A stretch of 64,000 nt of DNA from positions 19,958-83,957 of the forward strand of contig NZ_DGUN01000027.1 of assembly GCF_002395745.1 (NCBI RefSeq). Direction: 5' to 3'. The notes under the pieces were generated by a model, which ran no database searches, was not told the DNA's origin, and worked only from the letters and a program-made list of their open reading frames with translations. Every line of letters begins with the position of its first letter. The stretch's first letter is position 1. Positions 5,978 to 25,901 of the stretch are shown here, in pieces. The translations under genes were made by a program, and so were the position numbers. The DNA is from Fibrobacter sp. UBA4309 (lineage in GTDB: Bacteria > Fibrobacterota > Fibrobacteria > Fibrobacterales > Fibrobacteraceae).

Positions 5978-6814
5978 GTGGAACCGATATACGAATACAC
6001 CGACTACAGAGAATGGCTTAGGGATGCGTTTGACGATTTCAAGAAACGCAAGTCCGTCATCTCGTGGCGCTATATGGCGATGAAGCTCGGGGCTGACCCG
6101 GGCAACTTGCTGCGTGTATCCCAGGGCAAGATCCACTTGACCCTTTCGCTTGTCGGCCCCATGGCCGAGTTCTTCGAGCTGAACGAGAAGGAAACCGCCT
6201 ACTGGACGGAACTCGTCTATTTTGGCCGTGCCAAGACCGATGCCGAGGCGCTGAACCACTACGAGAAGATGCAGATGCTCAAGGGAATCCCCCTGAAGCG
6301 CCTGGCCAAGAAGGAACTGGAATTCTACCGGCACTGGTATTGCAATGCCATCCGCTCCATAATCGGCATTTGCAAGTTCAAGGACGACTATGAAGGTCTT
6401 GCGGAGAGCTGTACGCCCCCTATTTCTGTAGAAGAGGCGAAGAGTGCCGTAAAACTTTTGTATGATTTAAACATGATCTCGCGGGATAGGGAAGGATTTT
6501 GGAAGGTCAATGACACCTTCGTGAGTACCGGTGGAAACTGGCGTTCCGAAGCCGTGCGCACCTTCCAGAAAGAAACTGTACGCTTGGCCGGGGAATCCCT
6601 GGAACGCCATGCTCCGCCCCTCCGCGACATCAGCACTGTGACCATGACTTTCAACATGGACGATATCGCCTTGATTAGAGAGAAAATCAAGGAATTCCGT
6701 AGCGAACTCTTGCGCATGTCGCAGGAAGGCTCCGGTGACGATACCGTGTTCCAGTTGAACGTGCAGCTGTTCCCGATCGGCTTTGCCAAGAAATTACAAG
6801 GAGGGGCGAAATGA
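5978..6814 (+). CDS. TIGR02147/DUF4423 Fibrobacter paralogous family protein (HTH-like N-terminus)
   Basis: IYEYTDYR...SWRYMAMKLG, FYRHWY...IR, RDISTVT, VFQLNVQLFP. GTG start. Confidence 0.88.
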   Translation: MEPIYEYTDYREWLRDAFDDFKKRKSVISWRYMAMKLGADPGNLLRVSQGKIHLTLSLVGPMAEFFELNEKETAYWTELVYFGRAKTDAEALNHYEKMQMLKGIPLKRLAKKELEFYRHWYCNAIRSIIGICKFKDDYEGLAESCTPPISVEEAKSAVKLLYDLNMISRDREGFWKVNDTFVSTGGNWRSEAVRTFQKETVRLAGESLERHAPPLRDISTVTMTFNMDDIALIREKIKEFRSELLRMSQEGSGDDTVFQLNVQLFPIGFAKKLQGGAK

Positions 6815-22992: not shown

Positions 22993-23086
22993 GGGCATTA
23001 GTTTTTCCGTTTCGTTTTTTGTATATTCTTGCCATGTAAGGATTGAAAGGAGTGCCCGAAATCCTGTTCAGAGGTTAGTGATTAAA

Positions 23087-23824
23087 ATGCGATTGTTTGT
23101 TTTACTTGTATGCTTGCTGTCGGTGGCGCTTTTTGCGCGGCCCATAAACGACGGCAACAAGCTGTTCAAGAACGGCGACTATGCCGGAGCCTTGGAAAAG
23201 TACATGAAGGCCCGCGAGACCGAACCCGCGAACCCGCTCCTGTTCTACAACATCGGTACGTGCCAGTACAGGCTTGGCAACTACGAAGAGGCCAAGAAGG
23301 AACTCGAGAGTGCCGTGCGCATGCCGGACAAGAAGATGGCTGCGAAGGCGGCGTACAACCTCGCGAACACGCATTTCCGCATGGGTGAGAAGGCCGCCGA
23401 GGGCAGCGAACGCATTGCCGCCTGGCGCGAATCCGTTGCTTACCTCAAGAAGGCGATTGACCTCGATAACAATTTCGAGAACGCGAAGAAGAACGTGGAA
23501 ATTGTCCAGCGCAAGCTGAAGGAAGAACTCGACAAGCAGAAAGAGAACAAGGACCAGAATCAGGACCAGAACAACGACCAGAAACAGCCGCCGCTTTCCG
23601 ACAAGGCGAAGGAAGTCCTGGCGCGCGCACTCCAGCTCTGCAAAGACGGCAAGTACGCCGAGGCGAAGGAAATGCTCGAGAACCTGATTGCCGAGGACGA
23701 GACTGCGGGCCAGCTGAGCGGCCACGTGCAGCGCATCGACGATGTCATCGAAATCAAGGCGGGCCGCAAGCCCAAGGCGAAGATTGACGCGAGCAACACC
23801 GACAACGACCTGGAGGTGATCTGA
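23087..23824 (+). CDS. BatC-like TPR protein
   Basis: Signal peptide, GNKLFKNGDYAGA, YNIGTCQYR, YNLANTHF, DAKKNVEIV-like TPR cap. Confidence 0.75.
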   Translation: MRLFVLLVCLLSVALFARPINDGNKLFKNGDYAGALEKYMKARETEPANPLLFYNIGTCQYRLGNYEEAKKELESAVRMPDKKMAAKAAYNLANTHFRMGEKAAEGSERIAAWRESVAYLKKAIDLDNNFENAKKNVEIVQRKLKEELDKQKENKDQNQDQNNDQKQPPLSDKAKEVLARALQLCKDGKYAEAKEMLENLIAEDETAGQLSGHVQRIDDVIEIKAGRKPKAKIDASNTDNDLEVI

Positions 23825-24582
23825 TGCGTTTGAGAGTTAATAGTTCTGAGTTACTAGTTACTAGAGATAACACTGGTTGTCATTGCGAGGCGACGCCGAA
23901 GCAATCTCTTTCGTCTTTCGTCTTTCGTCTTTCGTCTATAGTTTTGCTGTTGTCCGCAGCGGCCTTTGCCGCCCCGAAGTCGGCGAGCGCCTACTACAGC
24001 GATGCGGCCTTCCAGTACATCGAAAACCGCCTGCCTTCTGCCGAAATCACCTGCAACGAGGGCCTGCAATACTATCCGAACGACCAGAAGTTGCAAATGC
24101 TCCTTGACCGCATCAAGGAAGCCAAGGACGAGCAGAAGAACGAGAACAAGAAGAACGACAAGAACCAGGATAACAACCAGGACCAGAATCAGGATCAGAA
24201 CCAAGATCAGAATCAGGACCAGAATAAGGACCAGCAGAACCAGGACCAGAACGGCGATGGCAATTCCAGCGGGTCCGAGAGTTCTTCGAGCCAGGGCGAT
24301 GACCAAAACCAGAATCAGAATGGCGGTGGCCAGTCCAGCAGCAGCCAGGGCAGTGAAAGTTCCGACAGCAATGGCGGGCAGCAGCCCGAGCCGCAACCCG
24401 AACAACCGCAGGAAAATTCCAGCGACAGCCAGGGCGAGGATCCCCAGGAACAGCCCGCGCAAATGGGCGAGATGACTCCTGAGGAAGCCGCGCAGCTCCT
24501 GAAGGATTTCGACGAGCAGAACGGCGAACGCAAGCCCTGGAAACCTATCCGCGGGCAGGCTAGGCCGGCCAAAGACTGGTAA
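23824..24582 (+). CDS. BatC-like exported protein with a Q/N/D-rich linker; N-terminus partly encoded by repeat DNA
   Basis: TGATG coupling, (QDQN)n tract at about 24160-24250, C-terminal MTPEEAAQLL...KDW typical of BatB/C tails. Confidence 0.7.
   Translation: MRLRVNSSELLVTRDNTGCHCEATPKQSLSSFVFRLSSIVLLLSAAAFAAPKSASAYYSDAAFQYIENRLPSAEITCNEGLQYYPNDQKLQMLLDRIKEAKDEQKNENKKNDKNQDNNQDQNQDQNQDQNQDQNKDQQNQDQNGDGNSSGSESSSSQGDDQNQNQNGGGQSSSSQGSESSDSNGGQQPEPQPEQPQENSSDSQGEDPQEQPAQMGEMTPEEAAQLLKDFDEQNGERKPWKPIRGQARPAKDW
23834..23936 (+). repeat. Intragenic composite: AGTT heptamers, REP-like GTCATTGCGAG..GAAGCAATC, and (TTTCGTC)4
   Basis: Read directly: heptamers 23834-23866, hairpin element 23879-23908, four perfect TTTCGTC at 23909-23936. 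Confidence 0.8.
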
Positions 24583-24797
24583 GGCGAGCGCCGCAGAAAA
24601 ATGCTTGCATTTTTCTATGGCTGAGCCGCTAAGTCTTGCGCGAAGCGCAACGACTGGTAAGGGTATCAAGCGGGAGTCCACTGGTGGGCTCACATTTGAT
24701 GCCCGCAAGGTCTTGCGCTCGAAGAGCGCAATGATTGGTAAGCCGAGCGTCGCGCGAAATCGACCTCAGTATGTCATCCCCGACCTGGTCGGGGATC
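24574..24797. repeat. Composite multi-hairpin intergenic element
   Basis: Three GAYTGGTAAG copies, two TTGCGC(TC)-GAA-(GA)GCGCAA hairpins, AGAAAAATGC-TT-GCATTTTTCT, and GTCATCCCCGACCTGGTCGGGGATC. Confidence 0.8.
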
Positions 24798-24815
24798 TTT
24801 TTTATATTGTATTAC

Positions 24816-25901
24816 ATGAGACTTCATGTACTTGTTTTTTTATGTGCGCTTTTGACTGCTGCTCTCGTCGCCTGCGGTGGCGATTCCAGTTCCGGTACGG
24901 ATGCCTCAGTTACGGAAAGTTCTTCGGAGCAGGCTCTGTCGAGTTCCGCGCAGTCGCCTGAACGTTCGTCTTCGAGTGTCGCGCCGGTATCGAGTTCAGC
25001 CGAAGAAAAATTGAGTTCGAGTTCCGCCGAGGTCGAGTCGTCGAGTTCGGAGACGCCGGCTTCTTCGGCAACCCCCGGCTCGTCCGAAAACATCGTAAGC
25101 TCTTCCAGCAGCGAAACGGTGCCCGCCTCCAGCAGTAGTGAATCCGTTCCGGCATCCTCCGACGACGGCGATGATGGCAAGTGCACCGACTGCGATAGCT
25201 ATACGGCAGCCGACCCGGAACTCACCGAGAAGGGCGGCAAGGGTTCCGTGACTACCTACGGGAGCATCACCGCTAAAGAGACTAGCTTGGGTGGCGCCTG
25301 CAACTATGGACAAACTAACATCCAGTATTACGCGGCGATTCACGTGAATGTTTCTCCGGGTGATGACAAAGGCCCGTGGGATGGCGGCGCGGCCTGCGGC
25401 GGCTGCGTGCATGTGAGGGCAAGGACGCCCGAAGGCTGGAAAGAGGTGACGGTTCGCATTACCGACCGCTGCCCCGACGCCAACTGTGGTGTGGACCTGG
25501 GCGGTGCGCCTGCGGCCGACATCATGGGCAATCGTGTGGGCCGTTATTCGGGCGAATGGGAATTCGTGAGCTGCGAGGGCGTAGACGGCGTGTGGGGCGA
25601 TTCCACGTCGATCTGGGTCAAAGAAGGCGCGAGTACTTTCTGGAGTATTATCCAGGTGCGTAACCCGAAGGACATGGTCAAGACCATCACGATTCTTGGC
25701 GAGGGTGACGAGTCCCATGAGCTCGAGATGGTCGTGGGCACCGAGAACTTCTGGACGGTCCCGCCCGAAATATTGCAGAGCGATAACCGTTACCGCGTCG
25801 TGGTAAAATACCGCACCGGCACCGATGACGTGTGGAAAATAAAGGGCTCGGACCTTGCCGTGCCCGAGGCGAACCTGTACCTGCACGAACATAGGGAATA
25901 G
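24816..25901 (+). CDS. Expansin-like lipoprotein (Ser-rich linker, DPBB domain, CBM63-like domain)
   Basis: Lipobox LVAC, TTYG...GGACNYG, YYAA, GGAACGGC, VRITDRCP, VDLG, WEFVSC, then KEGASTFW..IQVRN. Confidence 0.82.
   Translation: MRLHVLVFLCALLTAALVACGGDSSSGTDASVTESSSEQALSSSAQSPERSSSSVAPVSSSAEEKLSSSSAEVESSSSETPASSATPGSSENIVSSSSSETVPASSSSESVPASSDDGDDGKCTDCDSYTAADPELTEKGGKGSVTTYGSITAKETSLGGACNYGQTNIQYYAAIHVNVSPGDDKGPWDGGAACGGCVHVRARTPEGWKEVTVRITDRCPDANCGVDLGGAPAADIMGNRVGRYSGEWEFVSCEGVDGVWGDSTSIWVKEGASTFWSIIQVRNPKDMVKTITILGEGDESHELEMVVGTENFWTVPPEILQSDNRYRVVVKYRTGTDDVWKIKGSDLAVPEANLYLHEHRE

Follow-up and report, generated by a model that had tools for sequence, protein, structure and literature searches.

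Fibrobacter breaks down crystalline cellulose rapidly, with neither a cellulosome nor known processive enzymes, and explaining how it does so is, to our knowledge, a standing problem. Against this background, the gene described here raises the question of whether it encodes an expansin and what such a protein would contribute at the cell envelope. It is located at 24816-25901 (plus strand) of a 64,000-nucleotide stretch of DNA from Fibrobacter sp. UBA4309 (contig NZ_DGUN01000027.1, positions 19,958 to 83,957 of the forward strand), which is referred to as the window. With moderate confidence, based on sequence comparison and structure modelling, the gene is held to encode a lipid-anchored, non-catalytic, divergent expansin, found mainly in Fibrobacterota, which would engage a glucan chain and loosen non-covalent contacts. 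The following features were assigned to it:

24816..25901, plus strand: complete coding sequence of an expansin-like lipoprotein precursor, 361 amino acids (aa) and stop codon
24816..24875, plus strand: type II (lipoprotein) signal peptide MRLHVLVFLCALLTAALVA preceding the Cys of lipobox LVAC, read from the sequence
24876..25175, plus strand: Ser-rich low-complexity linker, residues 21-120, recognized by composition
25176..25577, plus strand: expansin domain D1, a double-psi beta-barrel (DPBB), residues ~121-254, from Pfam, NCBIfam, AlphaFold2, Foldseek and hhalign
25578..25898, plus strand: expansin domain D2, a CBM63-like beta-sandwich, residues ~255-361, from Foldseek, hhalign and phmmer against 4JCW

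Upon translation, all 361 codons are open with zero internal stops, and the NCBI and UniRef records hold an identical 361-aa product, the NCBI entry starting at the same ATG. A first search retrieved 665 homologs, the nearest of which bearing names are all from Fibrobacter.

The C-terminal module of 241 aa (residues 121-361) is highly conserved among homologs. It matches Pfam DPBB_1, EXPB1_D1 and Barwin weakly, each under the gathering score, and NCBIfam NF041144 (expansin_EXLX1) with an E-value of 2.9e-16 and 59.3 bits versus a curated cut-off of 100. Sequence matches in the PDB are expansins (9MS5, E 3.5e-9; 9MS4, 4JCW and 2BH0). An AlphaFold2 model of residues 121-361, computed from a 29-sequence alignment (loci from Fibrobacterota, Myxococcota and one betaproteobacterium), reached a mean predicted local distance difference test (pLDDT) score of 87.7 and a predicted template modelling (pTM) score of 0.84. 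When this model was compared by Foldseek with the PDB, the top 11 matches were all two-domain expansins (E 1e-11 to 3e-9, 213-258 aligned columns, TM(target) 0.66-0.78), among them fungal 7WVR, Streptomyces 9MS5, Clavibacter 4JCW/4JS7, Xanthomonas 9MS4, maize EXPB1 (2HCZ) and Phl p 1 (1N10). The Bacillus subtilis expansin BsEXLX1 (2BH0/3D30), against which the preliminary description had proposed to compare the fold, is likewise within these 11. Since 213-258 columns were aligned to targets of ~200 aa, both domains are matched; Phl p 2, which is homologous to D2 only, follows at rank 49. Model and structural matches thus place a D1 barrel and a D2 sandwich within one ~200-aa module, as in two-domain expansins. 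Alignment of the family by hhalign to a canonical EXLX1 profile whose first sequence is BsEXLX1 yielded a probability of 99.8 % (E 6e-30, 178 columns, BsEXLX1 residues 4-185); the BsEXLX1 sequence used was checked against the stretch contained in the PDB search alignment and against literature numbering. Together with the purifying selection described below, the NCBIfam, PDB sequence and profile-profile matches exceed chance by a wide margin. Independent annotation exists for the ortholog in strain S85 (FSU_3017/Fisuc_2453), named "expansin-like protein" in RefSeq (WP_015732307.1), "Expansin-like EG45 domain-containing protein" in UniProt (D9S7N7) and "expansin (peptidoglycan-binding protein)" in its IMG copy. 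Resting on fold, residues, family context and this annotation, the identification as expansin-like is well supported, as is a lipoprotein-type precursor with, judged from the model, a genuine two-domain expansin fold.

At the level of residues, every DPBB motif named in the preliminary description was located in D1 (residues 146-229): TTYG (146-149), GGACNYG (159-165), GGAACGGC (190-197), DRCPD (217-221) and VDLG (226-229). According to hhalign, BsEXLX1 residues T12, D71, Y73, E75 and D82 correspond to T146, D217, C219, D221 and D227, all five of which are invariant family-wide (alignments A2 and A3), and the groove residues equivalent to T12, D71 and D82 are hence conserved. BsEXLX1 D82 is equivalent to Asp in the HFD motif of plants, and a Cys in place of Y73, as in C219, is also present in most canonical expansins. 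Further traits of the family are eight conserved Cys (123, 126, 162, 194, 197, 219, 224 and 253), plant-like GGACxYG and CGxC motifs in an acidic domain with an isoelectric point (pI) of 4.8, and a family-specific invariant Asp183 in a PGDxxGxW loop. By analogy with plant expansins, the Cys pairs C162-C194, C197-C253 and C219-C224 would be predicted to form disulfides.

The N-terminus (MRLHVLVFLCALLTAALVA-CGGDSS) has the layout MRLH-VLVFLCALLTAA-LVAC, in which basic residues come first, then a hydrophobic stretch and finally the lipobox, as expected of a signal peptidase II substrate (taken here to require positive charge in the n-region, a hydrophobic h-region and, no further than ~35 residues from the start, the pattern [LVI][ASTVI][GAS]C). 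The lipobox claimed earlier is present as L-V-A-C with Cys20 encoded at 24873-24875; this Cys is invariant in an alignment of 16 homologs (A1), and lipoboxes were recognized, by pattern or by eye, in ~40 orthologous loci of other Fibrobacter genomes. Cleavage by signal peptidase II and lipidation of Cys20 are predicted from this layout. The adjoining linker is rich in Ser as had been described (per 100 residues 42 Ser, 11 Glu and 10 Ala), yet spans ~100 aa (residues 21-120) rather than the ~120 aa given. It is presumed from its composition to form a disordered tether and is possibly glycosylated. Among orthologs, linker length and sequence are hypervariable, with 27-149 aa separating the start from the domain.

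A module of lipobox and Ser-rich linker also occurs in ~30 further proteins of the same genome (e.g. on contigs C3, C4, C14, C30, C37 and C79). Many of these terminate in a ...(F/Y)SVRCVKD motif, which we take to be the Fibrobacter "major paralogous domain". Lipobox and Ser-linker look like a cassette that serves throughout the genus to tether domains with no other relationship, and the expansin module is mounted on what appears to be the standard Fibrobacter tether. Since a lipobox also precedes a low-complexity linker, enriched in Ser, Asp/Thr or Gly/Ala, in ~17-20 of 28 distant family representatives, the tethered layout is a trait of the subfamily and not of this gene alone.

An exhaustive homolog search among 1.84 billion representative proteins delineated the family: 44 clusters aligned end to end at E <1e-30 with 37-57 % identity, separated by a gap from ~1e-9, where canonical expansins start. 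The distribution across Fibrobacterota, which the preliminary description had suggested to survey, comprises 123 of 296 species-representative genomes of the phylum and 75 of 100 of the genus Fibrobacter, there almost always as a single copy. Named loci derive from metagenome-assembled genomes (MAGs) of rumen and horse-faeces Fibrobacter, from Chitinispirillaceae, from MAGs of "Deltaproteobacteria"/Polyangia and from Uliginosibacterium gangwonense. The ratio of nonsynonymous to synonymous substitution rates (dN/dS) of the domain is 0.04-0.12, indicating strong purifying selection. Some distant relatives, in other lineages, are multidomain proteins: the metagenomic representative P0148 (1022 aa) combines a GH5 cellulase, CBM_X2, CBM64, Big_2 and an InlB B-repeat with a Fibrobacter-type expansin module, P0153 combines CBM64 and P0154 an F5/8-type C domain with the expansin module. 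The fusions to GH5 and CBM64 may be taken as indirect support for cellulose binding.

Several irregular loci were encountered during this survey. Large open frames (≤1724 aa) near some high-GC orthologs contain no extra Pfam domains; they probably represent non-coding read-through and were discarded. The ortholog in Fibrobacteres MAG OH_CBB_122 (6001-6702 of its locus) carries an in-frame stop and may be a pseudogene or reflect an assembly error. In each of two Fibrobacter genomes (G177 and G195) several matches were obtained, part of them as pieces of a split sequence on a single contig; duplication, broken gene copies or contamination (6 % in G177) may account for this.

From these data the following mode of action is proposed. 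The precursor would be exported via Sec; signal peptidase II would then cut it and Cys20 would be acylated, whereupon the flexible Ser-rich tether of ~100 aa would hold the protein on the outer membrane. At the tip of the tether, the D1-D2 portion would form a rigid module, the flat face of D2 (Phe275, Trp276) docking on a polysaccharide surface while the D1 groove (Thr146, Asp217, Asp227) would engage a glucan chain and loosen non-covalent contacts without hydrolysis. Such loosening would aid adhesion and make plant fibre accessible to cellulases bound to the cell. Outward orientation, substrate, loosening activity and synergy with cellulases are what we infer here; putative surface display, fibril loosening and carriage on outer-membrane vesicles, as envisaged in the preliminary description, would make a reasonable functional story.

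A number of observations weigh against this reading. The first concerns D2. Of the three aromatic residues forming the linear cellulose-binding platform of BsEXLX1 (W125, W126, Y157), two are kept: F275 (F, Y or W across the family) takes the position of W125, and W276, which is invariant, that of W126. Tyr157, in contrast, is replaced by Glu310, likewise invariant in the family. The register of E310 agrees in three independent alignments (phmmer to 4JCW, alignment to 7WVR, and hhalign), the family motif being E-N-F-[FWY] (here E310, N311, F312, W313) versus canonical Y-N-Y-F. The CBM63 fold is therefore present with an incomplete three-aromatic strip, so that the CBM63-like domain with aromatic residues postulated earlier is upheld as to fold and F275/W276 but not as to the third platform aromatic. 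Because of the exchange of Tyr157 for an invariant Glu, affinity or specificity may differ from that of CBM63. Secondly, Fibrobacter-type proteins score 55-59 bits with the NCBIfam EXLX1 model compared to 86-180 bits for second-tier proteins, and thus form a divergent group, sister to canonical EXLX1, below the 100 bits required for membership in NF041144. Thirdly, 25 Fibrobacter species are without the gene, four of them with ~99 % complete genomes, which shows that the gene is not indispensable. Any functional story must accommodate the altered D2 face as well as this absence from one quarter of Fibrobacter species. Fourthly, neither CAZyme (carbohydrate-active enzyme) neighbours nor conserved synteny were found when this locus was compared with that of S85, since the neighbours differ between the two genomes.

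The remaining points concern localization. Lipoproteins of diderm bacteria face the periplasm by default, and we know of no surface-export route in Fibrobacter. Among ~208 predicted lipoproteins of the genome, Asp occupies position +3 in 36 % and position +4 in 33 %, versus a background of 15 % for Asp plus Glu, the consensus following the lipid-modified Cys being C-[S/G]-D-D-S-S. This pattern resembles what we take to be the surface-export signal of Bacteroidota, and by analogy may point to a sorting rule shared across the Fibrobacterota-Chlorobiota-Bacteroidota (FCB) superphylum; as a genome-wide habit, it is non-specific and no proof of orientation. Moreover, FSU_3017 is not among the entries listed in the cell-envelope proteome tables of S85 (Raut 2019, PMC6851124): sorted accessions jump from D9S7L9 (FSU_2996) to D9S7N9 and from C9RLM3 to C9RLP5, while both neighbours, FSU_3016 (C9RLM3) and FSU_3019 (D9S7N9), are listed. 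This single study speaks weakly against a high abundance of FSU_3017 in the envelope under its conditions. The S85 ortholog is not mentioned in the supplements of PMC8092306, nor did a full-text literature search by S85 locus tags return any mention.

Among the alternatives, the one surviving best, though it is considered unlikely, is a role chiefly as a tethered adhesin or binding module, whose expansin fold would do no more than attach cells or vesicles to plant fibre, the ligand possibly being a matrix glycan and not crystalline cellulose, with little or no loosening activity. A long flexible tether combined with a CBM-like D2 is the typical layout of an adhesin, Glu310 in place of Tyr157 suggests a changed ligand, and the fusion partner of some relatives is an F5/8-type C domain, not a cellulose module. 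Bacterial expansins generally loosen weakly and mostly affect colonization. Colonization phenotypes of bacterial expansins are reviewed in PMC10501053. On the other hand, the groove residues needed for loosening by BsEXLX1 (T12, D71, D82) are invariant family-wide, which counts against mere binding, because such conservation would be unnecessary for binding alone.

A second alternative, to which very little probability is assigned, is a periplasmic lipoprotein directed at the cell's own peptidoglycan, either as an RlpA-like lytic transglycosylase or as a binding factor. RlpA (rare lipoprotein A, a septal lytic transglycosylase) is itself a DPBB lipoprotein with an equivalent catalytic Asp, and the weak DPBB_1 and Barwin matches, PDB and IMG labels of relatives ("peptidoglycan-binding protein, expansin") and the default periplasmic topology of lipoproteins are compatible with this assignment. 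RlpA, however, consists of a single barrel plus SPOR and lacks D2, whereas the protein studied here scores 20.2 bits with DPBB_1 (cut-off 28.8) and has no SPOR match. The possibility of a plain RlpA fold devoid of CBM63, which the preliminary description had named as refuting its proposal, did not materialize, because Foldseek ranks two-domain expansins far above the best single-barrel RlpA-like match, PA4485 (4AVR; E 8e-3, 117 columns), and because the genome encodes a separate RlpA-like lipoprotein (DPBB_1 83.5 bits). A role in the cell's own wall is likewise at odds with the GH5 and CBM64 fusions seen in relatives and with the lack of the gene in one quarter of Fibrobacter species. The separate RlpA-like lipoprotein (contig C63, 32634-33119; 1297-1782 of locus L092, plus strand) comprises 161 aa with lipobox LGGC, and a SPOR domain is not visible in its open reading frame (ORF).

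Weakest of all and scarcely credible is an active GH45-like endoglucanase instead of a non-hydrolytic expansin: D1 does keep the plant/GH45-like GGACNYG and CGxC motifs, the acid-equivalent Asp227 and the family-specific Asp183, but TTYG in its N-terminal strand agrees with expansins, no Asp occupies what we take, by motif comparison, to be the GH45 base position, the top structural matches are all expansins, and no GH45 enzyme occurs in the Foldseek top 50.

The lipid-anchored, non-hydrolytic expansin thus remains the preferred interpretation. A far-reaching extension of it holds that the Fibrobacterota-type proteins constitute a distinct, ancestrally lipid-tethered subfamily (eight Cys, invariant Glu, PGDxxGxW loop), which, displayed on cells or vesicles, would be the long-sought non-hydrolytic factor opening crystalline cellulose in the absence of a cellulosome or processive cellulases; this extension is regarded as rather improbable.

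With respect to genomic context, the gene is solitary: the upstream neighbours encode TPR proteins, low-complexity proteins and a GT-C-like protein that bears an NPCBM domain, the downstream neighbours a Y-family DNA polymerase, a permease and a hydroxymethylpyrimidine (HMP) kinase. The S85 ortholog is flanked by guaB and gatA. An operon or CAZyme-cluster context was rejected in view of these neighbours and the different ones in S85. One further feature was assigned upstream of the gene:

24776..24796, plus strand: hairpin rich in G+C with a T-run after it, 20 nt ahead of the ATG, a terminator-like site

Nearly identical hairpins are carried by contigs C13 and C69, so that this one belongs to a dispersed family resembling repetitive extragenic palindromic (REP) elements; together with the T-run, it probably terminates upstream transcription. 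Interpretation as a riboswitch, leader or gene-specific regulator was rejected in view of its dispersed REP-like nature, the lack of any Rfam match in 24400-24900 and upstream regions that are not collinear among orthologs. A scan of the upstream region for sigma-70-like promoters found zero promoter-like sites. The intergenic region 24570-24797 contains three units of ~25 nt (CAAnGAyTGGTAAG...) at spacings of 78 and 81 nt as well as an additional two-copy repeat. The ORF upstream of it (23824-24582) harbours a long low-complexity region rich in Asp, Asn, Gln and Ser, has no Pfam match and is preceded by the gene of a TPR protein (23078-23824), the stop and start codons of the two overlapping.

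As a conserved single-copy gene of about three quarters of Fibrobacter species, the predicted cell-tethered expansin is a candidate part of the answer to how these bacteria open up cellulose. What reaches beyond the existing annotation is the altered D2 face, with Glu for Tyr157, and the tether of lipobox and linker common to the subfamily, both of which could bear on the engineering of non-hydrolytic proteins into cellulase mixtures or feed additives. The novelty implied in the preliminary description was overstated: RefSeq and UniProt already name the S85 ortholog expansin-like, a 2025 study mining rumen expansin-like genes lists Fibrobacter as a main bacterial source with ~1.3 genes per genome (PMC12632131), and lipoprotein expansins of diderm bacteria have been described (PMC10501053). 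The existence of Fibrobacter expansin-like genes is thus already known, and the present gain is one of refinement, not of discovery. Lipoprotein signals are not discussed in PMC12632131, where only fungal proteins were characterized. Judged by titles and abstracts, none of the open literature naming F. succinogenes together with expansin is apparently about Fibrobacter's own cellulolytic mechanism.

Among known systems, S85 FSU_3017 is the ortholog and shares the architecture of lipobox, Ser-linker and D1-D2 and 66 % identity overall, far higher over D1-D2 than over the linker; it differs in linker sequence and length and in having guaB and gatA as neighbours, versus TPR genes and the Y-family polymerase here. 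BsEXLX1 (B. subtilis YoaJ, 2BH0/3D30, NF041144) has in common the D1 DPBB and D2 CBM63-type fold and equivalents of T12, D71, D82, W125 and W126. Identity to it is 23-24 %, however, with 59 bits versus the cut-off of 100, Tyr157 exchanged for Glu310, and zero Cys in BsEXLX1 in contrast to eight conserved Cys in the acidic protein (domain pI 4.8) described here; furthermore, BsEXLX1 is plainly secreted, whereas the present protein has a predicted lipid anchor and a Ser linker of 100 aa. Streptomyces Ss_EXLX1 (9MS5) and Clavibacter CmEXLX (4JCW) give the best PDB matches, in sequence as well as in structure, and share the DRCPxC...DLG motif, but are from Gram-positive bacteria, devoid of a lipid tether and keep an aromatic residue at the Tyr157 position (Y in TDYGYW). 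Expansins of the FCB superphylum, according to PMC10501053, carry a C-terminal type 9 secretion domain, whereas the present protein ends with "EANLYLHEHRE" directly after D2, no type 9 sorting domain and no Pfam or NCBIfam match being found beyond D2. According to the same review, which cites de Sandozequi et al. 2022, one third of the expansin precursors of diderm bacteria have lipoprotein signal peptides, and it is these proteins, from Burkholderiales, Xanthomonadales and Myxococcales, that the Fibrobacter protein resembles in carrying its expansin module behind a lipoprotein signal, which implies association with the envelope.

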